Below are positions 1,641-26,098 of a stretch of DNA of 32,000 nt, in pieces (the first letter of the stretch is position 1; each line of letters opens with the position of its first letter). The stretch is from NCBI RefSeq assembly GCF_000020385.1, contig NC_010814.1, positions 1 through 32,000 of the forward strand. Reading direction: 5' to 3'. This stretch comes from Trichlorobacter lovleyi SZ (GTDB taxonomy: Bacteria; Desulfobacterota; Desulfuromonadia; Geobacterales; Pseudopelobacteraceae). The position numbers and the translations under genes were made by a program. The notes below the pieces were generated by a model, which was given only the letters and a program-made list of their open reading frames with translations, ran no database searches and was not told where the DNA came from.

Positions 1641-1670
1641 AAAGTTGCTACCAATACCTGTGTATGCAAC

Positions 1671-1860: not shown

Positions 1861-1869
1861 GAGTCTGGC

Positions 1870-2988: not shown

Positions 2989-2995
2989 ATCAGAC

Positions 2996-6507
<3,512 letters not shown>

Positions 6508-7238: not shown

Positions 7239-8563
7239 CAGGTCGTTGAAAATCGGCTCGATTTGAGTCCGTTCCAGTCAGCCGGCTGATTTTTTAAGTT
7301 TGCTTCGCTGTTCAGATGTCGCTGTTTTCGGTTGTGTTGCTCTTTTTCAACTTTATTTGCCTATGCTTGATGCACCCCAAGGCCGATTTGCCGCTCTCAG
7401 GTGACACCGAGCCCCAGGTTTTTCATGCGTACCAGGTTGTAGGCCGCTGCATGGAGATCAAGCTGCCAGGCAATCTTCTCAATGCCTCGATACATGGTCT
7501 TTCTCAGTCTGCCGATGGTCTTCATCCAGCCAAAGCCTTCCTCGATCCGTTTTCTGATCCTTTGGCTTATGCTGTAATTCGGATGAGCGGTGGTTCTGCC
7601 ATCAATGCCTGATTTCCTTCTGGTGTTGTTCTGAGCCACATGCGGCGTGACGTTGATTTGCCTGAGCTCTTTGACAAAGCCTTCGGTGTCGTATCCTTTG
7701 TCTGCACCGACGGTGATACGCCGGGTAGTACGAGGCAATTGTCTGATCATGGCCTTGGCGGCTTCACGCTCTCCGGTACCGGTTGCCGTGGTGACGCTGG
7801 TCTTGACGATCAGACCGTTTCTATTCTCCATCAAGGTGTGTCCCTGGTAGCAGAGCTTGGCCTCTTTGGTGTTGCCCTTGCGGTACAGTCTGGCGTTTGG
7901 ATCAGTGCTGGAAGAATGAGTGTCGTTTTTGAGTTGTTTGCCTTTGAAATCAACTGATTTATTTTTGCCACCACCGGCAGATGGCGGACCGTCTTTGGGC
8001 TTGAAGCTCTTGATGGAGGCCCATGCCTCAATCAAGGTGCCGTCAACGGTGAAGTGCTCTCGGGACAGGAGACGCTTGCGCTCTGCCTGAGCAAGGATAC
8101 GGGATAGAAACTCTGCGGCCACATCAGAGCCAATTAACCGTTCATGGTTCTTAGTGAAGCTGGAGTGATCCCAGATTTCATCATCCAGTCCCATGCCAAG
8201 GAACCAGCGGTACAGGAAGTTGTAGCGGATCTGCTCTACCAGTTGCCGGTTACTGCGGATGCTGAACAGTATCATCAGCAGTTGTGCTTTCAGCAGCTTC
8301 TCCGGGGCAATGGAAGAACGACCGGAATCGGCATACATGCTGTCAAAGAGCGGGCTCATCTCGGAAAGTGCCTGATCAGCCATACTGCGAATAGCACGCA
8401 GGGGATGATCCTTGGGTACAAATGACTCAGGCGTCACATAGGCAAAAAGAGCTTCATTCTGGACATCAGTTCCGCGCATAACTTTCCTCAATCAAACCGG
8501 AGTGTTGTGCGCACAAATATACTAAAAAAAGGCTGTTTTTACTACTTCAATTTCAACAGCCTG
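7239..8563 (-). mobile_element. IS5-family insertion sequence
   Basis: Terminal inverted repeats are CAGGTCGTTGAAAATCGG (7239-) and, as the reverse complement of 8563-, CAGGCTGTTGAAATTGAAG. It encodes one DDE transposase. A CTAG lies on the left flank (7235-7238). The matching CTAG is found only beyond the neighbouring IS110-type element (10052-10055). Confidence 0.75.
7397..8491 (-). CDS. IS5-family DDE transposase
   Basis: 364 aa. The N-terminal InsH-like segment reads LFAYVTPESFVPKDHPLRAIR. The central part reads SFTKNHERL and HFTVDGTLIEAWAS. The DDE-type C-terminal part reads GADKGYDT...RIEEGFGWMK. Confidence 0.9.
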   Translation of the reverse strand: MRKVMRGTDVQNEALFAYVTPESFVPKDHPLRAIRSMADQALSEMSPLFDSMYADSGRSSIAPEKLLKAQLLMILFSIRSNRQLVEQIRYNFLYRWFLGMGLDDEIWDHSSFTKNHERLIGSDVAAEFLSRILAQAERKRLLSREHFTVDGTLIEAWASIKSFKPKDGPPSAGGGKNKSVDFKGKQLKNDTHSSSTDPNARLYRKGNTKEAKLCYQGHTLMENRNGLIVKTSVTTATGTGEREAAKAMIRQLPRTTRRITVGADKGYDTEGFVKELRQINVTPHVAQNNTRRKSGIDGRTTAHPNYSISQRIRKRIEEGFGWMKTIGRLRKTMYRGIEKIAWQLDLHAAAYNLVRMKNLGLGVT

Positions 8564-10051
8564 TTGATATGGCTGACAGTTTCAAGCCTAAAATATTCTG
8601 CCCCTTTTGATCTTTTAAATTTCTGTCCCAGAGGTACGGGGCCTTTTTCAACGACGGTAGATCACGCTGATATTCGCGGGTTGGTTACCGCATGTCTTGC
8701 CTACGTCGTGGAGCTGCCTCTCGCTAGAGCCGGGAGTTCGGCTTGATGCCTTATCCCATAACAGGCCCGAGGATTCTCCGGTACCTTGGCCGCAACCTCT
8801 GTGGACAGAAACTGAATCATGTTCTTTGAAATCTGGTTACGATGCGACTGGTACTGCTTGGGCTATAGCCCACATGAATGCGGACAGTTCTCTGGCAATG
8901 GCGGTAATGACTACCTGTGCCTGCTTGCCTTTGGTAACAAGTCGTTTGTAGCGGGCGCAAAGTCTGAGCTGTGCCTTCCAGGCAATCTCCCATACCGCTT
9001 GCGGCAGATTCTGTTGTCGGTCTCGAAGTCGCCTGCTAACCCGTGCCGGCAACCGATACGACCAGGCAGCTTCGACCAGCATTCGGCGTGCATGTCCATT
9101 GCCAGTCTTGGTTATACCGCCTCGCTGTGTTGACTCTCCACTTGAGTGTTCTGAAGGTACAAGCCCCAGATACGCCATCAGATGTCGGGGATTGTCAAAG
9201 CGACTCAAGTCACCAAGCTCAGCAACGGTGGTTGAGGCAACTACCAGAGAGACTCCCCGCAGAGCTTGGAGCGCTTCGACAACCGGACCAAGTCGCCATT
9301 CTGCAGCAAGCAGGCAAATCTGTTCCGTGATCCTATCAACGCGCTCTGTGTTCGATCTGACTGCATCCACATACTCCTGCAGGGTGATCTGCTGTGCGGA
9401 ATGCGTCATGTGTATGTCGGAGATCCAACGCCAATGGGCAAGACTCCAGAGTGTTTTGCCGCTATAGCGGAAGCCGCTGCGCAGCAGAAATGCATTCAAT
9501 TGCTGACGGGCCTTTCGCTCAGCATTCTTTGCATCGATACGGGCCCTGCAGAGGTCGCGCATTGCCTCATCTTCGATGCGCGGAACATAGACCGGAGTCA
9601 GTTCGCCTGCTCGGTGCAGACGGGCCAGCATCTCGGCATCACGCCGATCATTCTTTATTCGGCTGCCGCTCTTCTTGGGAATCAAAGAAGGGGCAACCAC
9701 GATACAATCAAAACCCTTACGGGTTAGGTGCCGATAGATGTCATAACCGCACGGGCCAGCTTCATAGACGAATCGAAGTTCGGTACCACGAGAAACCAGT
9801 TTTCTGAGAACTTTGTCCAATGCATCAAGACTGCCGTCAATAGTGCCGTAGTAACGGACTTCCTTGTCACGGCCTTCAGCGGCCAAAGCGACATCAATGG
9901 AGTTTTTGTGAACATCAAGCCCAACATACGTGATAGACTTTTCCATGACCTGCCTCCTTGGTTGTGGCTCTGTGCTGTGAATCTACTCGTTCCCAGCTTA
10001 ACCCACGTTTGCAAGAGGCAGGTCTACTTTTTCAACTGACAGCCATTATGG
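8564..10051 (-). mobile_element. IS110-family (IS1111-like) insertion sequence, inserted exactly at the terminus of the IS5-family element
   Basis: Subterminal inverted repeats are ATGGCTGACAGTT (8569-8581) and AACTGACAGCCAT (10033-10045). There are 273 bp of non-coding sequence 3' of the recombinase gene and 105 bp 5' of it. Boundaries are inferred from the IS5 terminus on one side and the CTAG duplicate on the other, accurate to about 3 bp. Confidence 0.7.
8837..9946 (-). CDS. IS110-family DEDD transposase/recombinase
   Basis: 369 aa. N-terminus YVGLDVHKNSIDVAL (RuvC-like DEDD domain). The C-terminal Transposase_20-type segment reads LRGVSLVVASTTVAELGDLSRFDNPRHLMAYLGLVPSEHSSGES..GGITKTGNGHARRMLVEAAW. 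Confidence 0.92.
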   Translation of the reverse strand: MEKSITYVGLDVHKNSIDVALAAEGRDKEVRYYGTIDGSLDALDKVLRKLVSRGTELRFVYEAGPCGYDIYRHLTRKGFDCIVVAPSLIPKKSGSRIKNDRRDAEMLARLHRAGELTPVYVPRIEDEAMRDLCRARIDAKNAERKARQQLNAFLLRSGFRYSGKTLWSLAHWRWISDIHMTHSAQQITLQEYVDAVRSNTERVDRITEQICLLAAEWRLGPVVEALQALRGVSLVVASTTVAELGDLSRFDNPRHLMAYLGLVPSEHSSGESTQRGGITKTGNGHARRMLVEAAWSYRLPARVSRRLRDRQQNLPQAVWEIAWKAQLRLCARYKRLVTKGKQAQVVITAIARELSAFMWAIAQAVPVAS

Positions 10052-10813: not shown

Positions 10814-11815
10814 TTACATCAGCCTACCCTTGGCCAGTCGTAATATTGGTTTATCAGCAGCTGGTGTGGAACCTATTCCGGTGGCAATCACCGTAACCTT
10901 GATCTGGTCAGCCAACTCTTCATCCACAACTACCCCAACGATAATGGTCGCATCGCTGCTGATCTGTTCGGTCATCATCTTGCAGACCTGATCAAACTCA
11001 TCCATGGTCATACTGCTGCTGCCGGCAATGTTCAGAAGCAACCCCTTGGCTTCACGGATGTCCAAACCTTCAAGTAGCGGATTGTGAATTGCCATCATTG
11101 ATGCCGCTGTTGCTCGATCCGAGCCACTTGATATACCAGTTCCCATCATTGCCATACCGCGTGCCCCCAGAATGGTTCTGAGGTCACTCAGATCAACATT
11201 GATATGGCCATGCTTACTGATGATCTCCACTATCCCCTGTACTGCCTGCCTCAGCAGGTCGTCAGCAGGTTTGAACGCCTCCAACAGTGCGGTTCCTTTA
11301 CCGGATATGCCGATCAGCCGGTCATTGGGTATAACAATCAGGCTGTCCACCAGGGATAATAGCATCTTAATCCCTTGTTCAGCTATATCCGTACGGCGTT
11401 TACCTTCACGGGCGAATGGCTTGGTCACAACAGCAACCACCAGTGCGCCTGCTTCTTTGGCCAGCTTGGCAATCTCCGGTGTGGCGCCAGTACCGGTACC
11501 ACTTCCCATGCCAGCAGCCAGAAACACCAGATCTGCCCCTGTAAGACTATTCAGGATATCCTGCTGGCTCACCTCTACTGCAGCTCTGGCGGTCTCTGGG
11601 TTGCCTCCGGTACCAAAACCACGGGTGTCCGAACCTATCCTGATTTTTACTGCAGCATGGGATTTTCTGAGTCGCGCCTGTGAGGTACTGACGGCTATAT
11701 ATTCGACATCAGTAAGACCGGCTGCCAACATAGCATTGACTGCATTCAGGCCTGCCCCACCAATGCCGACGACCTTAATTGTAGGAGCCTCTATAGCTTG
11801 TTCTCTGTAGTCCAC
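10814..11815 (-). CDS. FtsZ paralog lacking the C-terminal linker and tail (Z3)
   Basis: 333 aa, GTG start with a GAGGAG RBS. It is colinear with FtsZ: IKVVGIGGAGLNAV (T1), GFGTGGNPE (T3), FLAAGMGSGTGTGATP (T4, GGGTG[ST]G altered to GSGTGTG), VVTKPF, IVIPND, INVDLSDLRTIL (T7), VTVIATGIG. It ends about 20 aa after the globular core. Confidence 0.88.
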   Translation of the reverse strand: MDYREQAIEAPTIKVVGIGGAGLNAVNAMLAAGLTDVEYIAVSTSQARLRKSHAAVKIRIGSDTRGFGTGGNPETARAAVEVSQQDILNSLTGADLVFLAAGMGSGTGTGATPEIAKLAKEAGALVVAVVTKPFAREGKRRTDIAEQGIKMLLSLVDSLIVIPNDRLIGISGKGTALLEAFKPADDLLRQAVQGIVEIISKHGHINVDLSDLRTILGARGMAMMGTGISSGSDRATAASMMAIHNPLLEGLDIREAKGLLLNIAGSSSMTMDEFDQVCKMMTEQISSDATIIVGVVVDEELADQIKVTVIATGIGSTPAADKPILRLAKGRLM

Positions 11816-11830
11816 AAGTACTCCTCGCCC

Positions 11831-12718
11831 CTAAATGATTGCCAGAACTGCTACCCTGGCAGAGTCATATAGGCTGTCATCAATGACGTAGTTGTAGATA
11901 ATGTTGAATTTGTTGGTTGAATTGGGGAGAAAGAAGCGGAAGAGCTCTATGGTAGCTTGGTCAAAGTCATTGAAATACGTAGCAGAGTTGCAGTAGATGC
12001 AGGCTATAGCACCACTATAGATGTCTGAGTCACTAACTTGTTGCTCTAAAAGGGCCAGAACCGACTGACTGGCCAGAGAACCTCTGGTGGGTCCGGTCGC
12101 GTAACTTGATGCAAAAACACTCCAGTTACCCTTCTGCAATATGGCCTTTACATACCCATTTACATCCGCAGCAACAACGCCATCAAGGTTACCATAATTT
12201 GCAAAGTCATACAGTGTCGTGACCAAACTGGATGCCGCAATTGGATCTGACTCGGTGCAGTACAGCGCATTTGATTCAGCAAGGGTGTGTAAGAGCCAAT
12301 GAGTAGACTGACTGGGGCCGATCACCACAGTTTGAATTCCTGATGCAGATGCAGACTCTAAGCTGGCTTTCAGTATATTGGCAGACCGCTTTTGCCTGGT
12401 ATCGGCAAACACGAACAACAGGTCGGTTTGGGGATAGGCCGTCACAACGCGGAGAATATCGGCGGCACCGTAATGTTGTTGAGTGAAATCTAGTTGGTAG
12501 CAATGCAATTTTCGAGCAGAATTGGTCAGCAAGTGCGTACAAGATGAGCCGAAAGTGCCAATTCCGATGGCGGAAATATGCAGGTTCTGTTGATAGTTAG
12601 TAGGAGCCTGGTGGAACGTTGCATGTGGCGGTGCCAGTAACGATGCAAGGCGGTTAGGAAGCGCAACTGACGCGAGGCTACCTTGCAACATTGTAGTGAG
12701 AAATGTCCGCCTGTCCAT
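11831..12718 (-). CDS. Degenerate FtsZ-fold protein with twin-arginine (Tat-type) leader (Z2)
   Basis: The ORF could start at 12736, but AGGAGG lies 5 nt before the ATG at 12718, giving MDRRTFLTTMLQGSLA.... It is colinear with Z3/FtsZ (ISAIGIGTFGSS; DLLFVFADT in place of T4; GIQTVVIGP; VVAADVNGYVKAIL; ATGPTRGSLASQ; GAIACIY; RVAVLAI), but the GTP-binding glycine loops are lost. Confidence 0.7.
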   Translation of the reverse strand: MDRRTFLTTMLQGSLASVALPNRLASLLAPPHATFHQAPTNYQQNLHISAIGIGTFGSSCTHLLTNSARKLHCYQLDFTQQHYGAADILRVVTAYPQTDLLFVFADTRQKRSANILKASLESASASGIQTVVIGPSQSTHWLLHTLAESNALYCTESDPIAASSLVTTLYDFANYGNLDGVVAADVNGYVKAILQKGNWSVFASSYATGPTRGSLASQSVLALLEQQVSDSDIYSGAIACIYCNSATYFNDFDQATIELFRFFLPNSTNKFNIIYNYVIDDSLYDSARVAVLAII

Positions 12719-12767
12719 GGGTTCCTCCTGTATCACAGTCTGAATGGTTTCATCTTAGAAAAACAAA

Positions 12768-12787
12768 GCGACGGGTGCTGTCGTTTG
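12768..12787 (+). promoter_or_regulatory. Conserved element copy 1: GCGACGGGTGCTGTCGTTTG
   Basis: One of six co-oriented GCGACA-N5-TGTCGTTT sites. It lies 49 nt upstream of the Z2 start (12718). Confidence 0.6.
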
Positions 12788-12878
12788 AAAATCTGTTTTG
12801 CAGGCGTTCCTGAATAAAGACCGCATCAAGAACGCTGGCCAGGCCTCTAGATTCGCCAGGCATCAGGCAATACAAAGC

Positions 12879-13751
12879 TCACCGCATTGCGAGGATGGCG
12901 ACTTTGATGGTATCAGCAGCTAAATGCTCATCCGGAATAGCTCCAAAGACAAAGGAGATGTCATTTGAGAAATAACCGTCCATCACTGAGACAGCCTGGG
13001 CATAGTAGTCAAACGGCATGGTAGGGGAGCCGTAGATGCAGGCCATGGCACCACGACAGTTGGCTGAATTAACCCCCTGCTGCTGTAGCCGTTCCAATGC
13101 TTGACTGCAGGCTCGTGATCCCCGGTCTGCACCAGTAGCCTCACTGCACGAGAACAGTCCAAGGTTGCCTGAACGGAGGATTGCCTTGATATCGCCATGG
13201 TCAATGCCAACAAAGCTGTCGGTGTTGGCAAGATCAGCCACCAAGGCCACTAAGTCACGTGCTGTAGTGTGATGAACAACAAAACAATGGGGGGGAGTTG
13301 AACAGGTGAGTGGTAATGCAGAAAGAGGACGATCAGTGCTGTATGGGCCAACAACAACCGACTGTACGCCAGCTGCAGCTGTTGTATTGATACAGGATGA
13401 CAGCAATGAATCAGATGCCGGGTCGGTTGTATCTGCAAAAAGGAACAGCAGATCCGTCTGCTGGATAGTACGGTTCAAACTTGAGAAATCCAGGTTGCCA
13501 GAGCGTAGCTGGTCAGATAACACTTCATAGCAACAGACATTCTGAATAGAGTAGGCCAGAAGTCTGCTAAAGACTGCGCCTAAGCTATTGATTCCAAGTG
13601 TAGAAATACGCACGTTCTGATATGAGTCTCCACCAAGGTGGCGCAGTGAGGCATACTGCTTTATCAGAAGCGGAGAGATGCTGTGCGGTAGCAGTGTCGC
13701 CGCAAGCGTCGTCCCCTGCAGCATGGTAGTGAGAAATGTTCGCCTGTCCAT
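12879..13751 (-). CDS. Degenerate FtsZ-fold protein with twin-arginine (Tat-type) leader (Z1)
   Basis: 290 aa. The first 13 residues, MDRRTFLTTMLQG, are identical to Z2. It is colinear with FtsZ: ISTLGINSLGAVFSRLL; DLLFLFADTTDPASDS in place of T4; GVQSVVVGP; VGIDHGDIKAIL (T7-like, both Asp kept); ATGADRGSRACSQAL; GAMACIYG; IKVAILAM. Confidence 0.7.
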   Translation of the reverse strand: MDRRTFLTTMLQGTTLAATLLPHSISPLLIKQYASLRHLGGDSYQNVRISTLGINSLGAVFSRLLAYSIQNVCCYEVLSDQLRSGNLDFSSLNRTIQQTDLLFLFADTTDPASDSLLSSCINTTAAAGVQSVVVGPYSTDRPLSALPLTCSTPPHCFVVHHTTARDLVALVADLANTDSFVGIDHGDIKAILRSGNLGLFSCSEATGADRGSRACSQALERLQQQGVNSANCRGAMACIYGSPTMPFDYYAQAVSVMDGYFSNDISFVFGAIPDEHLAADTIKVAILAMR

Positions 13752-13806
13752 ATGTATGCCCCCTGACTTACATCATTTGTAACGGTGGTCAGGGTAGTCG
13801 ATATAT

Positions 13807-13827
13807 GCGACAATGACTGTCGCTTTA
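13807..13827 (+). promoter_or_regulatory. Conserved element copy 2: GCGACAATGACTGTCGCTTTA (perfect 6+5+6 palindrome)
   Basis: It lies 55 nt upstream of the Z1 start (13751), in the divergent spacer shared with the DUF2779 gene. Confidence 0.6.
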
Positions 13828-13872
13828 AAATGTTAGTGGTAGCAGTACATCATCCTGACAAACGGAGCTGCC

Positions 13873-15354
13873 ATGAAAAAATCTGCCATCCCCGGTCTCA
13901 GCAAGTCCCGCTATCTTAATGGTCTGCAGTGTCCTAAATATCTCTGGCTTGCAACCTGGCGCAAAGAGCTGAGAAATGAATTTGATGAAACAACTGAAGA
14001 GATACTGGCCCAAGGGCATCAGGTAGGAGACATTGCCCAGGAGCTGTTTCCTGGTGGTGTGGAGATCCCCTATGATGGGCTGAGTATTGATGAGCAGCTG
14101 CAGCAGACGCAGAATGTGCTCAAGCAGAGCAAGGTCATCTATGAGGCCTCGTTTGAGTACAATGGTGTCTTTGTCAAGGCAGACATCCTGCGTAAGGGGC
14201 GCGGAGGCTGGGAGCTGTATGAGGTTAAAAGTTCAAGTAAGCTAAAAGACACCTATTACGATGACCTGGCAGTGCAGTACCATGTCATTACCAATGCCGG
14301 TATCAAGATAACCAAGGCGCATCTGATCCACATCAACACCTCATACCAGCGCAAAGGCAAGCTTGATCCTCACCAGTTATTTACCATTGTTGATCTGACC
14401 GAAGGTGTCCTGGAAATGCAACCTGCAGTCAAAAAGCAGATTGCAACCTTGAAGAAGATGCTTGCCGGAGCAGAGCCGATTGTTCAGATTGGCCCGCATT
14501 GTGAAGACCCGTATGAATGTGCGTTTAGCGAGCATTGCTGGCAGGATGTACCGGATGAAGGATCGGTTTTTGACCTTGCCGGTAACGGTGCGGACTGCTT
14601 CAAGCTCTATCATGAGGGGATCACAAAGCTCAAGGACATCCCGCTTGACCGCGTAAAGGGCAAGCAACGCCAGCAGGTAGAGGCTGCCAAAAAGAAGCAG
14701 ACCATTGTCAACAAAGAGGGACTGCAGGAGTTTATGGACAGTCTCTGGTATCCACTCTGCTATCTTGATTTTGAGACCTTCATGGAGGCTGTTCCATCCT
14801 ATGATGGGCAACGTCCCTACCAGCAAATGCCGTTTCAGTTCTCGCTGCATATCCAGAAAAAGCCAGGTGGTAAGGTATACCATCATGAATATCTGGCACC
14901 ACCTGCTATAGACCCGCGCAAGGAGTTTCTGGATGAGCTGCTGAAGGTATTGCCGGATGACGGATGTATCATGGTGTACTACAAACCGTTTGAGCAGAGT
15001 CGGCTTAAAGAACTGGCAGAACTTTACCCACGTAAGAAAAAGCAGATACAGCAGTTGATTGACAATATGGTTGATCTGCTGGATCCGTTCAAGGCACGGC
15101 ACCTCTATTCATGGAAACAGCAGGGCTCACACTCGATTAAGGCAGTGTTGCCAGCCTTTGTGAAGGACTTGAGTTATGATGAGCTGGAGATTAGTAACGG
15201 TAGTGCAGCCATGCAGGCATACCATAGCATGTGTGCTTCGGTTGAGAGCCCCAGAAAACTGGCTACACTCAGGAAACAGTTGTTGGCCTATTGCAAGCAG
15301 GATACGCTGGCGATGGTTAGGTTGCTTGAAGTGATATCTGAAAGGGCAAGATAG
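13873..15354 (+). CDS. DUF2779-type protein: N-terminal Cas4/RecB-like PD-(D/E)XK nuclease with a Cys cluster plus a C-terminal DEDD/RNase H-like domain
   Basis: 493 aa. The N-terminus LSKSRYLNGLQCPKYLWL is the family hallmark. Other motifs are ADIL...ELYEVKSS (D..ExK), CEDPYECAFSEHC (Fe-S-type cysteines), CYLDFET (DEDD-like) and a C-terminal YCKQDTLAMV. Confidence 0.7.
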   Translation: MKKSAIPGLSKSRYLNGLQCPKYLWLATWRKELRNEFDETTEEILAQGHQVGDIAQELFPGGVEIPYDGLSIDEQLQQTQNVLKQSKVIYEASFEYNGVFVKADILRKGRGGWELYEVKSSSKLKDTYYDDLAVQYHVITNAGIKITKAHLIHINTSYQRKGKLDPHQLFTIVDLTEGVLEMQPAVKKQIATLKKMLAGAEPIVQIGPHCEDPYECAFSEHCWQDVPDEGSVFDLAGNGADCFKLYHEGITKLKDIPLDRVKGKQRQQVEAAKKKQTIVNKEGLQEFMDSLWYPLCYLDFETFMEAVPSYDGQRPYQQMPFQFSLHIQKKPGGKVYHHEYLAPPAIDPRKEFLDELLKVLPDDGCIMVYYKPFEQSRLKELAELYPRKKKQIQQLIDNMVDLLDPFKARHLYSWKQQGSHSIKAVLPAFVKDLSYDELEISNGSAAMQAYHSMCASVESPRKLATLRKQLLAYCKQDTLAMVRLLEVISERAR

Positions 15355-15387: not shown

Positions 15388-16017
15388 GTGGGCACAACCG
15401 TAATCATTGAAGAGAAGGCGTTTTTGGGGGTCTTGTTGGCAGCAGTTGAGGCGTTTCCCGGCAGGTTTTATGGTGAGCGCAAGCCCAAAGGTGCAACTGC
15501 AGAGGGAGAGGTGCATGGCCTCCTGTTTGGGCAAAGGATTCAGCGAAATGATGGGGATGTTGTCTTCAATGTGACCCTGACTGTGCCAAACCAGATAGTG
15601 CTGGAACGAACGCATGACGGAATTTCCGTTGCTGCAAAGCATATCAATAAAATCAGGGAGGCAATAGAATTATTCCCGGCGTACAGCCTGCTGGGGTTTT
15701 TCCACAGCCATCCATATCCGGCGGATGAATTCAAAAAATGCAGCTCAGTTGAACCGTCAGAAACTGACAGGGATAGTGCTATCAGTTCTGCAGAGCAGGA
15801 AGAGGAGGAGATGCTTGACCTGATTTTTAGCATTACAAGGCTAAAGAGGCCCACATGGATATTGCCGCAATTCCCGAAACCTTATTTAATTCATGCCAGT
15901 TGCGGCGTTTACAAGTATACGCTGGCCTGCTATAGTGCCGTAACCTCTGAGCATGAGGAGTCCTACGGGGCGGTTGACAATCTGATTTGTACTACGGCGG
16001 CAGGGTTGCAGGCATAA
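15388..16017 (+). CDS. JAB/MPN (JAMM) metallopeptidase-domain protein
   Basis: GTG start with an AGGGAG RBS. The JAMM pattern is EVHGLLFG ... GFFHSHPYP...SSVEPSETD (E, HxH, SxxD). Confidence 0.65.
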   Translation: MGTTVIIEEKAFLGVLLAAVEAFPGRFYGERKPKGATAEGEVHGLLFGQRIQRNDGDVVFNVTLTVPNQIVLERTHDGISVAAKHINKIREAIELFPAYSLLGFFHSHPYPADEFKKCSSVEPSETDRDSAISSAEQEEEEMLDLIFSITRLKRPTWILPQFPKPYLIHASCGVYKYTLACYSAVTSEHEESYGAVDNLICTTAAGLQA

Positions 16018-16040
16018 ATTGCGCTTGAACTGGAGGGATA

Positions 16041-16379
16041 ATGCGTACAGTCGAACCTATTTTTAAAGTTAAAACAGGTGATTATAAAAAAATGGAAGAA
16101 ACATTAAAAAGGACTATTGGACAATATATTAGGCATTCAAAAGAATGTAAAATTGGCATTACTAATGATCCTTATGTCAGATGGAATAGCTATATCTCTG
16201 CAAATACCAGATATAATGAAATGATAGTTTTTTATAAGACTTCATCATATTCATATATTTGTGAAGTAGAGAAGTATTTAATAGATCATGCAAAAGACTA
16301 CGTAGACAATCAGAGAGGTGGCGGTGCCGGTATAAAAGATTGCCATAATGATTATTTTGCATATATTGTAAGACTGTAA
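16041..16379 (+). CDS. Small protein, tentatively GIY-YIG/T5orf172-like
   Basis: 112 aa with a GGAGGG RBS. The segment CKIGITNDPYVRWNSY ... EVEKYLIDH resembles the YIGxTxxxxxR ... E core. The gene is markedly AT-rich compared with its neighbours. The assignment is weak. Confidence 0.35.
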   Translation: MRTVEPIFKVKTGDYKKMEETLKRTIGQYIRHSKECKIGITNDPYVRWNSYISANTRYNEMIVFYKTSSYSYICEVEKYLIDHAKDYVDNQRGGGAGIKDCHNDYFAYIVRL

Positions 16380-16414
16380 TTACTTATTACTACACAATCA
16401 ATTGGAGGCTTAAA

Positions 16415-16651
16415 ATGGCACACGAGGTAAGTATCAACCTTCATACTAAAGTTGTCGCACATAAAGACCTTGAAATAGAAATTAAAACCATTTCAGACAA
16501 AAAAACAACTAAACTCGGTACGTTACTCATAAGTAAAGGAAACTTAGAGTGGCTGCCTGCAGGATGTTCAGTCAACAAAAAACAAATGACTTGGACTAAA
16601 TTTGCTGAACTAATGGAAATTAATGGCAAATCTTCAAAAGCGAAACAGTGA
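16415..16651 (+). CDS. Small hypothetical protein (78 aa)
   Basis: GGAGG RBS, and the same AT-rich composition as the preceding gene. No family recognised. Confidence 0.5.
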   Translation: MAHEVSINLHTKVVAHKDLEIEIKTISDKKTTKLGTLLISKGNLEWLPAGCSVNKKQMTWTKFAELMEINGKSSKAKQ

Positions 16652-16741
16652 ATGTATCTTGAATGTGTTTCGGTAATTCAAGGATATAGCGTTTAACATA
16701 TTGATCTCCATTTTTCTTCCTGATTTTCTAAAAAATATCAA

Positions 16742-16786
16742 CAATCTATGCAATTTGTCAATAAGATTGATAAATTGCATAGATTG
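16742..16786 (-). terminator. 21-bp inverted repeat (20/21 match, 3-nt loop), a possible bidirectional or minus-strand terminator
   Basis: CAATCTATGCAATTTGTCAAT-aag-ATTGATAAATTGCATAGATTG. In the minus sense it is followed by TTGATATTTTTTAG. It lies between the convergent plus-strand and minus-strand gene blocks. Confidence 0.4.
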
Positions 16787-16985
16787 GCCTGTATCACCCT
16801 TTCCATGATCTCCCGCATGGCTGAACAAATAATCCGCACCTGCTAAAGGCTTCCCGGTTATAACACTGTGAATCGGCATGCAATATTGACCCACTTTCGG
16901 GTGTAATCGGCGTCCAAAATTGACCCACCTCAGCACCTCCTCCATTCTCTTTGGCATCATCCAGAGAGAGGAGCTTTGAAAGGAG

Positions 16986-19290: not shown

Positions 19291-19611
19291 GTCTGCGTTT
19301 TTGTGAGGCTTCAACATGACATCCTGCATGCCTGATAGCAGCTCAAGCTTATCATCAAGGTCGCAGAGTTTTTTGTTCAGCTTAACCAAGCCGGTGCTGA
19401 CCAAAGGGCTTTCTGGTTGGAGTGCCCGATGGAACTCACCCTCTTTAATGCCGGTCAGGTGTGCCAGCAGTTTACAGAGTGAGTCGGTAGTTGTCTTTTG
19501 TGTTCTAGGTGCAATGGCAGAACGGAATTCAGTAAAGATGCTCAGGCCTGCTGCAAAGGTGAAAACAGCCTGATCTGCCTCAGTTAGCTGGTCGTGATTT
19601 GTGAAACATCC
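19291..19611 (-). pseudogene. Gene fragment trapped between the IS21 and IS3 insertions (possible 3' part of the last operon gene)
   Basis: Only one minus-strand frame is open across the whole interval: ...GCFTNHDQLTEADQAVFTFAAGLSIFTEFRSAIAPRTQKTTTDSLCKLLAHLTGIKEGEFHRALQPESPLVSTGLVKLNKKLCDLDDKLELLSGMQDVMLKPHKNAD. There is no start codon of its own. I could not verify frame continuity with 20832-21214. Confidence 0.3.
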
Positions 19612-19658
19612 TGATGGGTAGAATAAGCAATATACCGATCTGGTTGTCGTTTCTGGCC

Positions 19659-20486
19659 TCAGGCTGCCAGCTTCAGTCTTTGGTAATACGCCTCATCCGG
19701 TGTCTGCTTGTCAAGTGATGTATGCTTTCTGCCGTTGTTGTACCAGTTGAACCAGTCTGTCAGGTCTTTGAAAAGCTCAGTTCCGGTCTCGTAGGTTCTA
19801 AGGTAGATCCTCTCGTATTTGAGGGTACGCCAGAGCCGTTCAATGAAGATGTTGTCCTTGAAACGGCCTTTGCCATCCATGCTGATCCTAACGTTCCACT
19901 GTTTCAGCACTGAGGTGAATGCCTCGCTGGTGAACTGGCACCCCTGGTCGCTGTTGAATATCTCGGGGGCTCCGTATTTGAACAGTGCCTCCTTGAGTGC
20001 TTCGACACAGAAGCGGGTGTCAAGCGTGTTGGACAGGCGCCAAGAGAGCACCTTTCTGGTGCCCCAGTCCATGATGGCAACCAGGTACATGAAGCCTCTG
20101 GCCATCGGAATGTAGGTGATGTCGGTTGCCCACACCTGATTGGGACGGTCAATGGTTAGTCCCCGCAGCAGATATGGGTAAACCGGATGCTTGGGATGCC
20201 GCTTGCTGGTTCCCGGCTTGGGCGACAGAGACTGGATGCCCATCAGCAGCATCAGACGGCGAACCCGGTCACGGCCTACCGGCTCTTCTGGTATTGTCAG
20301 ATGATCTGCCAAAGAGCGACTTCCCATCCAGGGATGCTGCAGATAGAGTTCGTCGATCCGCCGCATGAGTGCAAGATCACCGGAACGAAGGCCGGATGCC
20401 GGACCACGGTAGTAGCTGGCTCTCGCTACCCCGAGCAGTTCACATCTGCGTTCGACAGAAACATCAGGATGGCCGGTAGCGATCAC
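19659..20486 (-). CDS. IS3-family transposase OrfB (DDE integrase core), expressed as an OrfAB fusion
   Basis: WATDITYI, AIMDWGTRKV, FNSDQGCQFTS and ERLWRTLKYE are the DD(35)E region motifs. Confidence 0.92.
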   Translation of the reverse strand: MIATGHPDVSVERRCELLGVARASYYRGPASGLRSGDLALMRRIDELYLQHPWMGSRSLADHLTIPEEPVGRDRVRRLMLLMGIQSLSPKPGTSKRHPKHPVYPYLLRGLTIDRPNQVWATDITYIPMARGFMYLVAIMDWGTRKVLSWRLSNTLDTRFCVEALKEALFKYGAPEIFNSDQGCQFTSEAFTSVLKQWNVRISMDGKGRFKDNIFIERLWRTLKYERIYLRTYETGTELFKDLTDWFNWYNNGRKHTSLDKQTPDEAYYQRLKLAA

Positions 20487-20788
20487 TTTCTGTTTCTGCG
20501 CCCGGTCAAGCTCAGACCGGGCAGATTGGACAAAAAATCGTTTTCCGCCTTGAGCTTGCCGATGACGCGGTGCAGCTCGGCTACTTCGGCGTCGTGATTG
20601 ACCTCTTGCTTCTTCCCTTTGCCGAAGAGGTCTGAGGCGTTTTCAACGAGTTCCTGTTTCCAGTTGCTGATCTGGCTTGGGTGAACTTTGTACTCGCTGG
20701 CGAGCTCGGCCAGCGTCTTGGATTCGGTTAAAGCTGCCAAGGCTACCTTGGCCTTAAATTCTGAACTGTAACGGGTGCGGTGCTGCAT
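20483..20788 (-). CDS. IS3-family transposase OrfA (HTH)
   Basis: 101 aa. YSSEFKAKVALAAL..KTLAELASEYKVHPSQISNWK, followed by a leucine-zipper-like end. Confidence 0.9.
   Translation of the reverse strand: MQHRTRYSSEFKAKVALAALTESKTLAELASEYKVHPSQISNWKQELVENASDLFGKGKKQEVNHDAEVAELHRVIGKLKAENDFLSNLPGLSLTGRRNRK
20501..20537 (-). other. Programmed -1 ribosomal frameshift signal of the IS3 element
   Basis: In the minus sense, the slippery run T TTT TTG (20531-20537) is followed by the stem-loop CCCGGTC-tgagctt-GACCGGG (20501-20521). The -1 frame reads ...SARSELDRAQKQKVIATGHPD into OrfB. Confidence 0.7.
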
Positions 20789-20831
20789 GGAACCTCTCCT
20801 TTCAAAGGGATCGGCTCATTGCTTATACTCA

Positions 20832-21214
20832 TGTCTCAAAAACCGCAACCACTTCACAGTCAGATTCAACATTCCTGTCAGCAGTTTTATGTTTCTAAAA
20901 AATGGGAGTGAATCTGAAAGCTTCTTTTTGGCAAGCTTCTGGCGTTGGCGGACAAGCAGTTTCATACAATGCCCGGCTGTTACGCGTTCAGGCTGCTCCT
21001 CATGGTCTGTATCAAGGGCAGTCATGGCGCAGAAGTCGGAATCCTCGAATATATCCGGCCAGCGTCTGGGGTGACTGGGGCGATGCCAACCGAAGTAGAG
21101 TATGATGTCGATCAGCCAGACTCCAAAAAGCGGGGTATATTTTACATTTTCTCCAGGCCGTTTGCAGCATGTTAGGCTATTTGCTGCTGAGTGAGAAAGG
21201 AATGAAAGTGACAT
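20832..21214 (-). pseudogene. 5' part of the last gene of the WYL-regulated operon (gene X), truncated by the IS3 insertion
   Basis: The start is reassigned to ATG 21214 (MSLSFLSH...), which has GGGAGG 8 nt upstream and conserved element copy 3 48 nt upstream. No family recognised. Confidence 0.35.
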
Positions 21215-21262: not shown

Positions 21263-21283
21263 GCGACAAGTTGTGTCGTTTTA
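21263..21283 (+). promoter_or_regulatory. Conserved element copy 3: GCGACAAGTTGTGTCGTTTTA
   Basis: It overlaps the MBL gene stop codon and lies 48 nt upstream of ATG 21214. Confidence 0.6.
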
Positions 21284-22549: not shown

Positions 22550-22580
22550 AAAACTGTGTCGTCCTTGATATCAGCTTGTC

Positions 22581-23522: not shown

Positions 23523-23531
23523 AAGATTCTC

Positions 23532-25099: not shown

Positions 25100-26098
25100 T
25101 TATCCAGGTCTATACATCTTGGCATAAGCATCTGCGAGCTCGACATACTCCTGTCGCAGAGAGGCCGGAGCCAGAACCTCCACCCTGCTACCAAAGCCAT
25201 TGAGCCACCAGCGTAGTTGCAGGGTATCTTCCACGGTTGCGGTAAGTTCGTGTCCATCAGCAGTTGCATGTATCTTCTGATTCGCTGCCAATGGAGACTC
25301 TTCAAGCCGCTGCATATCAACCTTGTGACTAAAACGAACTTTCAATCGAATACTACTGCCAACCGGAAACGTCAAAAGCTCTTGCACCCACGCATCCAGA
25401 TCAAAGTCCTCCGGCACGGTGACCGGTTTGTCCAGCAGGTCAATCGTCTGGAACCGGTGCAGCAGCAGCAGGATCGGTTCAACATGCTGGTTGATGGAGG
25501 CGATCAGGTAGGTCAAGCCATCAACAAAGGTCATGCCCAGAGGATTTACCTCTTCGTATGTTTTTGACTTGCCAGATACGGTTGTGTAGGTGGCTTTGAA
25601 GCGTTGTTCCTCCAACAGGGCGGTGTACGCCTTTTCAGTGATTTCCTCTGATATTGTTGGTGGAATGGTCGTCAGGCTGCGGGATAGGACCCTGACCTTA
25701 TTTGGCCAGGCAGCCAGCTTTGGATCAACAGCAGATTTTAAGCGTTGCTCTGCGGTTTTTTGATAGGGGATTAATGCTGAGAGTATGCCTTTCGGGAACA
25801 TCTTTTCCAGATACTGGCTGGCAAGGGTAAAGGTGAGGGCTGTAACCGGATCCATGTTGGGCATGTCAAAGTTTGCAGCATCATCAGTCCATTTCCAGCC
25901 CGATGGTTTTCTTCCGTCACTTGCAATCGGAAAGAGCGCTTCCAGTTCAATCAGATCCCGCTGGATAGTACGCAGGGTAGTTTCAATGCCGTCTTCATGT
26001 TTGAGTCGACTGCAGATCTCAACTGTCGAAATACCGGTTCCCCTCCTGGGGATCATGCGCAGGATTAGCCAGTGGCGATAGAGAGTACTCATGCTCAT
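25100..26098 (-). CDS. WYL-domain transcriptional regulator (wHTH-WYL-WCX architecture, BrxR/CapW-like class)
   Basis: N-terminal wHTH (LYRHWLILRMIP..GISTVEICSRL.....LRTIQRDLIELE), a central WYL-type beta domain (YEEVNPLGMTFVDGLTYLIA) and a C-terminal WCX-like LQLRWWLNGFGSRVEVLAPASLR. The more likely start is ATG 26092, based on GGAG spacing. Confidence 0.8.
   Translation of the reverse strand: MSMSTLYRHWLILRMIPRRGTGISTVEICSRLKHEDGIETTLRTIQRDLIELEALFPIASDGRKPSGWKWTDDAANFDMPNMDPVTALTFTLASQYLEKMFPKGILSALIPYQKTAEQRLKSAVDPKLAAWPNKVRVLSRSLTTIPPTISEEITEKAYTALLEEQRFKATYTTVSGKSKTYEEVNPLGMTFVDGLTYLIASINQHVEPILLLLHRFQTIDLLDKPVTVPEDFDLDAWVQELLTFPVGSSIRLKVRFSHKVDMQRLEESPLAANQKIHATADGHELTATVEDTLQLRWWLNGFGSRVEVLAPASLRQEYVELADAYAKMYRPG

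Follow-up and report, generated by a model that had tools for sequence, protein, structure and literature searches.

Three consecutive minus-strand open reading frames of Trichlorobacter lovleyi (10814-11815, 11831-12736, and 12879-13751 of the 32,000-nucleotide stretch analysed here, referred to below as the window) are all derived from FtsZ. The first gene of the operon encodes ZA (12879..13751, minus strand; 290 aa), a pseudo-FtsZ, and is followed by the genes of a second pseudo-FtsZ, ZB (11831..12718, minus strand; 295 aa from an ATG at 12718), and of a short FtsZ, Z3 (10814..11815, minus strand; 333 aa). The triad is tentatively taken to belong, as an accessory module derived from FtsZ, to a chromosomal island concerned with conflict or the cell cycle, and putatively not to be the housekeeping ftsZ. 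The best reading of its working, held with less than even confidence, is that capped FtsZ hetero-oligomers form the basis of a WYL-linked accessory module for conflict or the cell cycle.

The colinearity of the three genes with FtsZ, on which the original prediction rested, is borne out by profile, PDB, and AF2 plus Foldseek evidence. That prediction was right in part. The FtsZ triad and its leaders stood, and so did, in its interpretation, the fold, the loss of the GTP loops, the twin-arginine motif, and the conflict setting; the Tn7-like transposon setting, the assignment of the T7 loop, and details of the Z3 tail did not.

The operon and the short FtsZ

The longest ORF of ZB begins with a GTG at 12736, but its start is most likely the ATG at 12718, which has AGGAGG upstream and gives the N-terminus MDRR, as in ZA. 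Z3 starts 15 nt past the ZB stop and has a ribosome-binding site (GAGGAG); therefore, ZB and Z3 appear to be co-expressed. The divergent intergenic region between ZA and a DUF2779 nuclease gene (13752..13872) is presumed to be the promoter region, and its layout is kept in three related loci (L001, L003, and L011).

All three genes are under purifying selection in four genomes, with dN/dS ranging from 0.09 to 0.29 (ZA 0.18-0.29; ZB 0.27; Z3 0.09-0.23), and the arrangement is seen again in five or more independent contigs. It is therefore beyond chance. The order of pseudo-FtsZ followed by short FtsZ is found in L001, L003, L009, and L011. The pseudo-FtsZ family comprises about 70 clusters at 50% identity, and all its named sources are Geobacterales. 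It is highly improbable, and was already disfavoured, that the genes are non-functional relics, that is, duplicates of ftsZ in decay on an island riddled with IS elements. Such decay would suit the heavy disruption of the island here, where an AAA gene is split and a DnaA-like gene is lost, and the ZB of L003, which is split into two ORFs; however, the three ORFs are intact in this strain, the dN/dS values are low, and motifs are conserved across the family clusters.

Z3 scores 349 bits against TIGR00065, the NCBI FtsZ equivalog (cut-off 295.2), and also matches Pfam Tubulin and FtsZ_C. Its nearest PDB matches are solved FtsZ structures (E 8e-86), and its identity to canonical Geobacteraceae/Desulfuromonas FtsZ is 53-57%, with both domains present. 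The motifs T1 (GIGGAGLNAV), T3 (GFGTGGNPE), T5, and T7 (NVDLSD) are kept, and Z3 should, judged by these motifs, be able to bind GTP. Two changes are seen in the alignments. In the T2 loop, S43-T44-S45 (11681..11689, minus strand) replaces the canonical N-T-D (VSTSQ for (A/V)NTDAQ), and the T4 signature is G104-S-G-T-G-T-G110 (11486..11506, minus strand) for GGGTGTG (GMGSGTGTG for GMGGGTGTG). These motif assignments (T1, T3, and T7 kept, STS for NTD, GSGTGTG) agree with those first made from the sequence. Z3 belongs to a distinct short-FtsZ clade of about 45 clusters (56-100% identical). The STS change is common to the whole clade and is not found in the canonical FtsZ of Geobacteraceae (~384 aa), and the T4 Ser occurs in most clade members. 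Both changes fall exactly in the pocket that receives T7.

Z3 had been thought to stop right after the globular core and to have no linker. A disordered linker is indeed missing, but 18 residues, STPAADKPILRLAKGRLM (10817..10870, minus strand), remain as a vestigial C-terminal tail. In the tail of canonical Geomonas FtsZ, they correspond in the alignment to the first EIPTYIRAK motif, and LDIPAYIRRK or LDTPTFMRNR is still present in five clade members (P0197, P0199, P0200, P0215, and P0216); by this alignment, the Z3 tail is probably a degenerate C-terminal peptide. Since the linker is missing, normal coupling to membrane tethers is not expected. Z3 differs from canonical FtsZ in these respects although it lies above the equivalog cut-off, and its gene lies in the island and not beside ftsQ/ftsA. 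A second, truncated FtsZ without a C-terminal tail is also known from Magnetospirillum, where FtsZm is encoded in the mamXY operon of the magnetosome genomic island. Z3 resembles it as a tail-less second FtsZ in a genomic island, but FtsZm is not known to be accompanied by GTP-dead paralogs or RR leaders, and there are no magnetosome genes at the Z3 locus.

Two FtsZ-fold proteins without a GTP pocket

ZA and ZB share 36% identity along their full length (E 7e-49), and the C-domain of ZA is 26% identical to Z3 (E 9e-14). In Foldseek searches with the AF2 models (pLDDT 80.6 for ZA and 73.7 for ZB), the top 50 of 50 matches of each protein are FtsZ, with about 300 aligned columns and TM of 0.6-0.7, the value for ZA being about 0.7. 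As modelled, both ZA and ZB have the full two-domain FtsZ fold. The profile matches of ZA are restricted to the C-domain (FtsZ_C, E 9e-4; TIGR00065, E 3e-7), and ZA is 100% identical to a T. lovleyi protein named 'FtsZ/tubulin family protein' by NCBI. The Foldseek matches of ZA and ZB include complexes of SulA and of MciZ with FtsZ.

The two proteins share the fold of canonical FtsZ but have none of its GTP-binding loops and carry an N-terminal leader. The T1 and T4 glycine loops are replaced in both, as had been predicted (NSLGAV and ADTTDPASDS in ZA; GTFGSS and ADTRQKRS in ZB), and about 25 residues spanning T2-H2-T3 are, besides, deleted in the alignment. Canonical GTP binding by ZA and ZB is thus ruled out. 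A T7-like loop, G182-I-D-H-G-D187 (13191..13208, minus strand), is kept in ZA as the counterpart of N-V-D-F-A-D of FtsZ; it aligns with NVDLSD of Z3, and G182 is invariant and D184 at least 90% conserved. The original prediction had recognised that one pseudo-FtsZ retains this loop (IDHGD) but had placed it in the protein with GTFGSS and ADTRQKRS, in which the T7 equivalent is degenerate (GVVAAD). The T7 consensus across the pseudo-FtsZ family is IGIDFADV. It is kept, and T1-T4 are lost, although members outside the ZA clade are only ~18-30% identical to ZA. Such a pattern would be predicted for a lower face that still contacts a partner loaded with nucleotide.

FtsZl1 and FtsZl2 are divergent paralogs of the FtsZ superfamily that occur beside conventional FtsZ and are thought to act outside division itself (PMC2875224). 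Both families were aligned on the T1 and T4 elements; FtsZl1 has neither T6-H7 nor the FtsZ C-domain and is found in vWA/OmpA operons, and FtsZl2 keeps T1, T4, T6, and T7 and has an extra C-terminal region of ~300 aa and no conserved neighbours (PMC2875224). ZA and ZB are the reverse of these (Makarova & Koonin 2010), the GTP loops being lost and H7/T7 and the C-domain kept. No prior description of the triad or of the pseudo-FtsZ family, nor of a naturally occurring GTP-dead FtsZ paralog that serves as a cap, was found in the literature, and PADLOC gave no match for the triad. The pseudo-FtsZs with a Tat-like leader apparently form an undescribed protein family.

The twin-arginine-type leader

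ZA and ZB both open with MDRRTFLTTMLQG, a leader fitting the twin-arginine motif as first noted, and their first 13 residues are identical. The leader comprises residues 1-36, MDRRTFLTTMLQGTTLAATLLPHSISPLLIKQYASL in ZA (13644..13751, minus strand) and MDRRTFLTTMLQGSLASVALPNRLASLLAPPHATFH in ZB (12611..12718, minus strand). In ZA, in which it is nearly invariant across 26 homologs, the twin-arginine motif precedes an h-region that has no charge and closes with Pro, and a second conserved motif comes after it. No other segment of the protein is as constrained as the leader, whose dN is 2.6-3.9 times below that of the remainder of ZA, and RR-x-F shows no variation among 12 distant representatives that are 26-38% identical elsewhere. 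Therefore, the leader is clearly functional. ZA and ZB are, from their sequences, putative Tat-type substrates.

Genuine Tat export is unlikely but has to be taken seriously. ZA and ZB would fold in the cytoplasm, and TatBC would read the RR leader and deliver the proteins to the periplasm or, via the uncleaved signal, to a membrane-anchored state. The consensus (S/T)RRxFLK is closely matched even in distant relatives (MNRRDFLKG, MKRRDFLKG, and MNRRDFIKG), the invariance of RR-x-F contrasts with the divergence of the globular part, and a basic residue follows the Pro of the h-region. In profile searches of the family, Pfam TAT_signal and TIGR01409 are the commonest specific matches after FtsZ; however, they match only 3 and 5 of 44 relatives, respectively, at a marginal E of about 0.02, and neither TIGR01409 nor PF10518 matches ZA or ZB even at E<=10. 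The h-region KD of ZA and ZB (1.08-1.17) is at the low edge of hydrophobicity and lower than in reference signals from E. coli (~1.4-1.75), and no AxA-type or other evident signal-peptidase site follows the h-region. RR is missing from about half of the family, in which the downstream motif and the T7 loop nevertheless persist, and this loop would have no obvious use where GTP or FtsZ is absent. An RRxFLK-type motif at the N-terminus and an uncharged h-region behind it are features that ZA and ZB share with Tat substrates, from which they differ also in having no cofactor and an unusually conserved leader, and we know of no Tat substrate with an FtsZ/tubulin fold.

In Tat hitch-hiker complexes, such as the small and large subunits of hydrogenases, a signal-less partner is exported with a signal-bearing one. 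The short FtsZ, where present, may likewise ride as a GTP-locked hitch-hiker, resulting in a periplasmic FtsZ-fold assembly; in Z3, hydrolysis might be slowed by the STS and GSG changes, leaving GTP in a structural role. As a general feature of the family, the hitch-hiking originally suggested for Z3 fails, because leader and short FtsZ are uncorrelated: L013 has an RR pseudo-FtsZ without a short FtsZ, and L009 pairs a short FtsZ with a leaderless pseudo-FtsZ.

It is rather improbable that the leader is a cytoplasmic recognition or tethering peptide and not an export signal. It might then be a tag read by the neighbouring double-AAA unfoldase, which would make the pseudo-FtsZ a regulated, degradable, antitoxin-like cap, or a membrane-binding helix that takes the place of the FtsA-binding tail missing from Z3. 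The leader changes less rapidly than the mature domain, which sets it apart from a generic signal peptide, and in L013 and L015 a double-AAA ATPase of 716-719 aa lies directly beside RR-bearing pseudo-FtsZs. The second motif, P-x-L-L...V-R-x-Y-P-A-M-P, survives in members without RR, and an N-terminal helix is predicted by AF2, with low confidence in the ZA leader. However, the likeness to the Tat consensus would have to be a coincidence repeated in dozens of lineages, and the consensus helix has a low hydrophobic moment (0.33; ZA 0.86, ZB 0.50). To our knowledge, an RRxFLK degron has no precedent.

The island and a possible role of the triad

The triad island sits between gyrB and gyrA, and its chromosomal site differs among genomes. 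The module had been placed in Tn7-like cargo, but the transposition genes of the window are those of IS21 (IstA/IstB; IstB_IS21, E 3.4e-75), IS110, an IS5-like element, and IS3, and the same module is found in islands of other genomes that are free of these four IS elements. A location of the module on a transposon is therefore rejected; the IS elements are secondary insertions that damaged neighbouring island genes. A double-AAA (Cdc48-like) ATPase is left as remnants (19291..21163, minus strand; tblastn with the 724-aa protein of L003), namely 20858-21163 and 19291-19587, with an IS3-family insertion between them (transposase 19659-20486) and the downstream end cut off beside IS21. Intact copies adjoin or lie near the pseudo-FtsZ in five loci (L001, L003, L011, L013, and L015). 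A DnaA-like gene, found downstream of the short FtsZ in relatives, is absent from the window. With these losses, the module may be partly disabled in this strain.

The conserved divergent neighbour of the operon is a DUF2779 / Cas4-like PD-(D/E)XK nuclease (13873..15354, plus strand; PF11074, E 1.9e-46; Cas4, E 1.2e-5), which is 75-94% identical in L001, L003, and L011 (dN/dS 0.06-0.13). The most widely conserved companion is a WYL/WCX transcription regulator (25100..26098, minus strand; PF13280 and PF25583), ~11 kb from the triad within the window. Its homologs (37-77% identical) occur in six further loci (L003, L007, L009, L010, L011, and L013), that is, in all at seven places examined. The regulator and the double-AAA ATPase are near the module in most, not all, loci. 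The surrounding genes, which include SIR2, PLD, Tpt1, DUF2779/Cas4-like, MBL, BREX, R-M, ABC-3C, and HipA, are in keeping with the predicted defence or conflict setting.

The island might instead be, or derive from, an integrative replicative element whose FtsZ-like proteins work beside a DnaB-like helicase and a DnaA/DnaC-like loader as a segregation or positioning cytoskeleton in the manner of TubZ/PhuZ; this is very doubtful. The window encodes a DnaB-like helicase of 318 aa that aligns from end to end with a phage DnaB-like profile of 273 aa, the DnaA-like gene of relatives also matches DnaC-like loaders, leaderless cassettes adjoin P4-type integrases, AlpA, and DUF3631, and the differing sites of the island would fit. 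However, the window showed neither an integrase nor a TubR-like adaptor or centromere repeats, searches of 72,556 plasmids and 50,697 phages found nothing similar, and Z3 is far nearer to true FtsZ than to PhuZ (E 3.5e-8). We know of no segregation tubulins with GTP-dead subunits.

Under the favoured reading of a capped hetero-oligomer, Z3 would be an FtsZ core that binds GTP in a modified gamma-phosphate pocket, and ZA and ZB would be pseudo-subunits with a destroyed upper nucleotide face, the lower-face T7 loop being kept in ZA. ZA, and perhaps ZB, would dock on the GTP face of Z3, or on host FtsZ in relatives without Z3, through the ordinary head-to-tail interface, and growth beyond the pseudo-subunit would be blocked. 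A cap formed by ZB is unsupported because its T7 aspartates are missing. Longitudinal contacts between non-equivalent subunits are known from alpha/beta-tubulin and BtubA/B, in which both partners bind GTP; here, in contrast, one partner has no pocket. The 'capper' mutants of the FtsZ interface and the inhibitors SulA and MciZ occupy one filament end and limit polymer growth, but SulA and MciZ are unrelated small proteins and not FtsZ-fold paralogs. The leader may direct the complex to the Tat machinery or the membrane. Capping is hard to square with true export by the leader, which would remove the pseudo-subunits from the compartment that holds FtsZ and GTP.

Expression is probably controlled by the WYL regulator of the island, as suggested by co-occurrence only, and the double-AAA ATPase nearby may have a part in turnover. 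Under DNA damage or in conflict with phages or mobile elements, the module would interfere conditionally with FtsZ assembly and so arrest growth or division. DidA of Caulobacter, a small membrane protein, is unrelated to FtsZ. The triad may nevertheless resemble the DriD-DidA system and DdaA-AciT of Acinetobacter in its control, as homologous regulators accompany it: in these systems, the WYL activators DriD and DdaA turn on the division inhibitors didA and aciT, respectively, and division is blocked upon DNA damage (PMC9186387, PMC13010146).

Fold and GTP pocket of the triad

Three minus-strand ORFs derived from FtsZ are present in the window as had been claimed: ZA (12879-13751) and ZB (11831-12736 as the longest ORF), which are pseudo-FtsZs, and Z3 (10814-11815), a short FtsZ. 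ZA (290 aa) is 100% identical to a T. lovleyi protein labelled by NCBI as "FtsZ/tubulin family protein", and is 36% identical to ZB over the full length (E = 7e-49). On sequence evidence alone, ZA can be recognised as FtsZ-like just in its C-terminal domain, which is 26% identical to Z3 (E = 9e-14) and matches PDB FtsZ at E ~5e-7, and BLASTP gives no match between ZB and Z3. The colinearity of ZA and ZB with FtsZ, as originally predicted, was upheld by AF2 models (pLDDT 80.6 for ZA and 73.7 for ZB) and Foldseek. For both models, all 50 of the top 50 PDB matches are FtsZ crystal structures (TM 0.6-0.7), with no unrelated family among them, and since the alignments extend over ~300 columns, both FtsZ domains are covered in each protein. 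The predicted fold, consisting of a Rossmann-like domain, H7, and a C-terminal domain, settles the placement of ZA and ZB in the FtsZ/tubulin superfamily.

The loss of the GTP pocket in ZA and ZB exceeds the replacement of the T1 and T4 glycine loops that had been described. In the refined alignment, T1 reads GINSLGA or GIGTFGS, T4 reads ADTTDPAS or ADTRQKRS, and ~25 residues over T2-H2-T3 are deleted entirely. Neither the tubulin signature G-G-G-T-G-(T/S)-G nor the T1 glycine loop is found in the two proteins, which are superfamily members by fold, yet not GTPases. The T7 loop is GIDHGD in ZA, and its equivalent in ZB is a degenerate GVVAAD with the first Asp lost. The T7-like IDHGD noticed earlier is therefore present, but it belongs to ZA, the protein with NSLGAV and ADTTDPASDS, and not to the one with GTFGSS and ADTRQKRS. 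The true start of ZB is almost certainly the ATG at position 12718, with AGGAGG upstream, and not that of the longest ORF; with this start, ZA and ZB both open with MDRRTFLTTMLQG.

Z3 is an FtsZ by all sequence tests. It scores 349 bits against the TIGR00065 equivalog (curated cut-off 295.2), contains the Pfam domains Tubulin (PF00091, E = 1.5e-39) and FtsZ_C (PF12327, E = 6.7e-30), and matches solved FtsZ structures at E = 8e-86. The motifs previously read from it are borne out by the alignment: T1, T3, and T7 (NVDLSD) are intact, whereas T2 is VSTSQ against (A/V)NTDAQ in canonical FtsZ (STS for NTD), and T4 is GMGSGTGTG against GMGGGTGTG. Judging from these motifs, Z3 is likely to bind GTP, and its GTP hydrolysis may be altered.

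The view that Z3 ends right after the core is correct in that there is no linker and no FtsA/ZipA/SepF-binding tail, but 18 residues (STPAADKPILRLAKGRLM), ending DKPILRLAKGRLM, remain after the core, and these align with the EIPTYIRAK motif of the canonical Geomonas FtsZ tail. The canonical relatives of Z3 have a tail of ~65 residues, then DIPTFLRKSVD at the end. Some members of the Z3 clade still terminate in LDIPAYIRRK or LDTPTFMRNR. By these alignments, the Z3 tail is vestigial rather than absent. Z3 belongs to a distinct clade of short FtsZs (~45 clusters, 318-369 aa, 56-100% identical to Z3), whose members have lost the T2 NTD (STS, VNVS, CSV etc. in its place), carry RLRKS and, in most cases, GSGTGTG, and have short tails; next to it are the canonical FtsZs of Geobacteraceae and Desulfuromonas (~384 aa, ~53-57% identical to Z3). 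Compared with canonical division FtsZ, Z3 is a family member by score, but it differs from the housekeeping protein in its tail and in its gene context, as its neighbours in the island are pseudo-FtsZ genes and IS110 and not a dcw cluster beside ftsQ/ftsA.

The Z3 gene starts 15 nt past the ZB stop, with a GAGGAG site, which suggests that ZB and Z3 are co-transcribed and possibly translationally coupled. The pairwise dN/dS values, in which dS is near saturation in the deeper pairs, are 0.18-0.29 for ZA, 0.27 for ZB, and 0.09-0.23 for Z3. Decay of superfluous copies is an unlikely explanation in view of these values, and there is scarcely any probability that the three are relic genes.

FtsZl2 is known to keep T1, T4, T6, and T7 and to carry an extra C-terminal region of ~300 aa, and FtsZl1 is without T6-H7 and the FtsZ C-domain (PMC2875224). 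In contrast, ZA and ZB have lost T1 and T4 and kept H7 and the C-domain. The assignment of ZA and ZB to FtsZl1 or FtsZl2 was rejected on the differences in GTP loops, H7/C-domain, and domain layout.

The pseudo-FtsZ family and its twin-arginine-type leader

A profile of ZA and ZB was searched against 1.84 billion representatives. At E ≤ 1e-30 the search returned 27 proteins; end-to-end matches of 280-325 aa number several dozen, after which the list grades into canonical FtsZ. None of the members examined has a T1 or T4 glycine loop. TIGR00065 is matched at E ≤ 1 by each of the 44 members in the alignment (E = 6.2e-22 for the best and 3.1e-07 for ZA), and the T7 loop is kept in the family consensus as IGIDFADV (core IDFAD). 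The named sources are all Geobacterales (Trichlorobacter, Geobacter sp. M21, Geomonas limicola, and Geomonas propionica); a genome-wide locus survey with a narrower family alignment recovered a single locus, which is in Geomonas propionica and lies at the end of a contig. In size and coherence, the family exceeds what could be seen in the original prediction. One pseudo-FtsZ (7485-8420 of locus L009) has the full FtsZ length and keeps T2-T3 while the T1/T4 motifs are lost. It lacks the RR leader, shares 29% identity with Z3, and is encoded two genes 5' of a short FtsZ; from its sequence, it looks like an evolutionary intermediate between short FtsZ and pseudo-FtsZ.

FtsZ/tubulin proteins are defined by GTP-driven head-to-tail assembly, and the T7 loop normally reaches into the pocket of the neighbouring subunit. 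A family in which the nucleotide pocket is discarded and the T7 loop conserved would supply natural "pseudo-subunits" ready for use as filament caps or GTPase activators, and would offer cells or mobile elements a new means of controlling FtsZ.

In tblastn searches of 72,556 plasmids and 50,697 phage records with ZA and two other family members (P0039 and P0177), nothing or just canonical ftsZ was found, and a plasmid or phage origin of the pseudo-FtsZs was rejected for lack of homologs there. The segregation tubulins TubZ and PhuZ were rejected on the same searches and on the weak match of Z3 to the PhuZ phrog (E = 3.5e-8, N-domain only). That the proteins form a cytoskeleton for the maintenance of a mobile element is given a slim chance.

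ZA and ZB share a leader of ~36 residues, which has the motif D-R-R-T-F-L-T followed by 25 (ZA) or 17 (ZB) uncharged residues and agrees with the Tat consensus at the motif level. Members of the Trichlorobacter clade show hardly any variation over the first ~36 residues, and the dN of the ZA leader is 2.6-3.9 times below that of the rest of ZA. An RR-x-hydrophobic-hydrophobic start is present in 37 of the 70 full-length representatives, and many family leaders match the textbook Tat motif (MNRRDFLKG, MNRRDFIKG, MKRRDFLKG). M1, R3, R4, and F6 are among the columns without any variation in 12 RR-bearing representatives that share 26-38% identity in their globular parts. Past the RR motif, the uncharged stretch closes in Pro and is followed by a second motif, approximately P-x-L-L-x-x-x-x-V-R-x-[YH]-P-A-[IM]-P. 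Judged by this conservation, the leader motif is real and under selection. A conserved leader of twin-arginine type has no known precedent in the FtsZ/tubulin superfamily, and it indicates either that an FtsZ-fold protein is exported or that a Tat-like peptide has been put to a new use.

The proposal of a Tat-type leader is borne out as far as the RR motif and its conservation are concerned, but not by the curated Tat models or by a cleavage site. TIGR01409 and PF10518 at E ≤ 10 match neither ZA, ZB, nor the consensus leader, isolated leaders included; among the relatives, they match 5 of 44 and 3 of 44, respectively, at E ~0.02. The hydrophobicity (KD) of the h-region is weak (1.08 in ZA and 1.17 in ZB) compared with 1.36-1.75 in E. 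coli signals. Under a simple rule made for this analysis, which calls for small residues at -3 and -1, ZA residues 22-41 contain no signal-peptidase (AxA) site, and the sole candidate in ZB is LAS|LL at residue 27, with no plausible site after the h-region. About half of the family is without RR, in some members visibly degenerate (RQ, RC, TR), and retains the second motif and T7; at the loci with DNA examined, no upstream extension restores RR in these members.

Export of ZA and ZB by the Tat pathway is a hypothesis, and true export, with or without hitch-hiking, is considered doubtful. Passage of ZA and ZB through the inner membrane as genuine Tat substrates, with a GTP-locked short FtsZ in tow, is rated as quite unlikely; were it to occur, it would yield the first tubulin/FtsZ-superfamily assembly outside the cytoplasm, with natural "pseudo-tubulin" subunits and the nucleotide in a structural role. 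The same estimate covers a cytoplasmic variant, in which the leader would tie an FtsZ-capping module to the proton-motive-force-dependent Tat machinery. In this variant, export would clear the caps in healthy cells, and the caps would build up and arrest division when the membrane is de-energised, e.g. by phage.

Genomic setting and a candidate mechanism

The window starts with dnaA, dnaN, recF, and gyrB (213-6507) and ends with gyrA (28298-30844), and these flanks place the triad in a ~21.8-kb island between gyrB and gyrA. The triad had been taken for cargo of a Tn7-like transposon. This is wrong, because neither TnsA/TnsB/TnsC nor TnsD/TniQ is found: the sole pair of rve/Mu-C transposase and AAA protein in the window is IS21 IstA/IstB (PF01695; IstB_IS21, E = 3.4e-75), and the remaining mobile genes are IS110, IS5-like, and IS3. 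Moreover, the module recurs in islands free of these four, namely L001, L003, and L011, of which L001 has two unrelated IS200-type Y1 transposase genes. Apart from the transposon context, the original prediction was substantially right in what it observed.

The IS elements have damaged the island in the window. The gene for a double-AAA (Cdc48/IteA-like) ATPase (19291-21163) is reduced to two fragments (20858-21163 and 19291-19587), which are parted by IS3 (19659-20486) and in which only residues ~18-125 and ~124-223 of a 724-aa homolog are still detectable; IS21 (16986-19224) lies just past the downstream fragment. A DnaA-like gene, which elsewhere is located 3' of the short FtsZ, is missing, and IS110 (8837-9946) occupies its place. 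The G+C content falls sharply to 0.358 in 16001-17000, between a JAB-like gene and IS21, against ~0.49-0.52 on either side.

The gene order recurs in three further genomes: another T. lovleyi strain (L001, CP058409), a Geobacteraceae MAG (L003), in which ZB is present as two ORFs, and a metagenomic scaffold (L011) with a single pseudo-FtsZ. In these, a DUF2779 nuclease gene is divergent from an operon consisting of the pseudo-FtsZ(s), the short FtsZ, and the DnaA-like ATPase. The DUF2779 protein of the window (Cas4-like PD-(D/E)XK nuclease plus RNase-H-like domain; 13873-15354, plus strand), encoded divergently from ZA, is kept in all three and is the most constrained of the neighbourhood (dN/dS 0.06-0.13). 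The adjacent JAB/MPN-like protein (15388-16017, plus strand) has weak matches and is seen in the window only. The WYL/WCX regulator encoded in the window (25100-26098, minus strand) has homologs of 37-77% identity in L003, L007, L009, L010, L011, and L013.

The unfoldase-like double-AAA ATPase (716-724 aa) adjoins RR-bearing pseudo-FtsZs in two loci (L013 and L015) and is nearby in L001, L003, and L011; NCBIfam gives it a sub-threshold IteA-like/Cdc48-like match and nothing better. The leader might have a non-export role, as a tag recognised by the AAA protein or as a membrane tether, which is regarded as unlikely.

In the leaderless subfamily (L005-L008), the pseudo-FtsZ gene is paired in a two-gene cassette with a partner that differs between loci: two of the partners resemble peptidase C45/AAT, and the others have a weak C39-like match and a zinc-ribbon match. 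The C45/AAT-like protein (358-368 aa; PF03417, E = 2.6e-7) is encoded as the downstream partner in L005 (10933-12009) and L006 (2296-3402), and its gene is frameshifted in L013 (1457-2532), the island of the RR-bearing P0039. An XRE regulator is divergent from the cassette in L006 and L008 and lies ~0.8 kb upstream in L007, and a P4-type integrase is located ≤1 kb downstream in L006-L008. HipA, BREX, and ABC-3C genes surround leaderless cassettes, and L005 lies amid type I R-M, HNH, and NERD genes.

Variable genes of nuclease or defence type (DUF2779/Cas4-like, PLD, SIR2, Tpt1, MBL/beta-CASP, and, in the window, JAB-like) are interspersed between the conserved ones. The neighbourhood is a conflict-island signature, and the regular co-occurrence of the module with WYL, the double-AAA ATPase, and defence genes suggests that Geobacterales harbour a hitherto uncharacterised system for conflict or cell-cycle arrest. 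A known anti-phage defence system was rejected, since PADLOC-DB 2.0 has 0 families for Z3, ZB, or ZA and gives only generic Cas4, WYL, and JAB matches in the neighbours. A full-text literature search on such FtsZ-like proteins found no description either, in keeping with the earlier remark that no described FtsZ or tubulin family with Tat leaders or with such a three-paralog layout was known. It is rated as an undescribed branch of the FtsZ superfamily, with nucleotide-free pseudo-subunits, a twin-arginine-type leader, and a WYL/AAA-linked island module. Scans for promoters and terminators gave sites no commoner than in shuffled sequence.

The WYL activators DriD and DdaA turn on the division inhibitors didA and aciT (PMC9186387, PMC13010146), and by analogy with them WYL control of the triad is proposed. 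In the simplest mechanical reading, the T7 face of the pseudo-subunit would dock on the GTP face of Z3, or of the host FtsZ where Z3 is absent. As the pseudo-subunit has no nucleotide face of its own, a capped heteromer would result, and FtsZ assembly would be conditionally interfered with; the role of the leader would be to direct the caps to the membrane or the Tat machinery. The T2 and T4 changes specific to the Z3 clade are located in the T7-receiving pocket, which would fit co-adaptation or slowed hydrolysis. This combination of WYL-controlled capping and leader targeting is put forward tentatively, with a probability somewhat short of even.

Other genes of the islands

The protein encoded directly 3' of the short FtsZ in L001 (13586-14278), L003 (12933-13670), and L011 (10022-10798) is a DnaA paralog of 230-258 aa consisting of the AAA+ domain only. 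Its TIGR00362 match (252 bits) covers positions 103-343. It shares 44-47% identity with the DnaA of the window and matches DnaA far better than Hda; DnaC-like loader phrogs also match. A DnaB-like protein of 318 aa in the window (26716-27672, minus strand) matches positions 149-433 of the 435 of the DnaB model, so that the N-terminal domain is missing, and no ORF upstream is able to supply it. Its match to a phage "DnaB-like helicase" profile of 273 aa is end to end, and it may therefore be a replicative helicase of a mobile element. The idea of a "poison subunit trio" of core-only DnaA, DnaB, and FtsZ paralogs was downgraded, because, according to PHROGs, DnaC-like loaders and short helicases of the DnaB type are commonplace among the replication genes of mobile elements.

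A small, very acidic protein is encoded beside the WYL gene in the window (26238-26609, minus strand; 123 aa, C-terminus DEDLEIDEDELDDSGDDHQEDDDSF) and in L009 (7061-7405), and beside the pseudo-FtsZ in L007 (9428-9760). The proteins are 39-55% identical and have no Pfam or PHROG match; a DNA mimic or a regulator partner is possible.

Between the broken AAA gene and the WYL gene of the window (21281-25043, minus strand) are encoded an MBL/beta-CASP (RNase J-like) hydrolase of 422 aa, a 313-aa protein without an assigned family, and a protein of 503 aa that weakly matches SMI1/KNR4 (SUKH). L003 has counterparts of the MBL and SUKH-like genes at 72-79% identity. In L001, ZA and ZB are separated by a 175-aa ORF with no detectable family (10902-11429). 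The window lacks an equivalent of this ORF, and its ZA-ZB spacer measures 160 bp, or 142 bp if counted to the upstream GTG.
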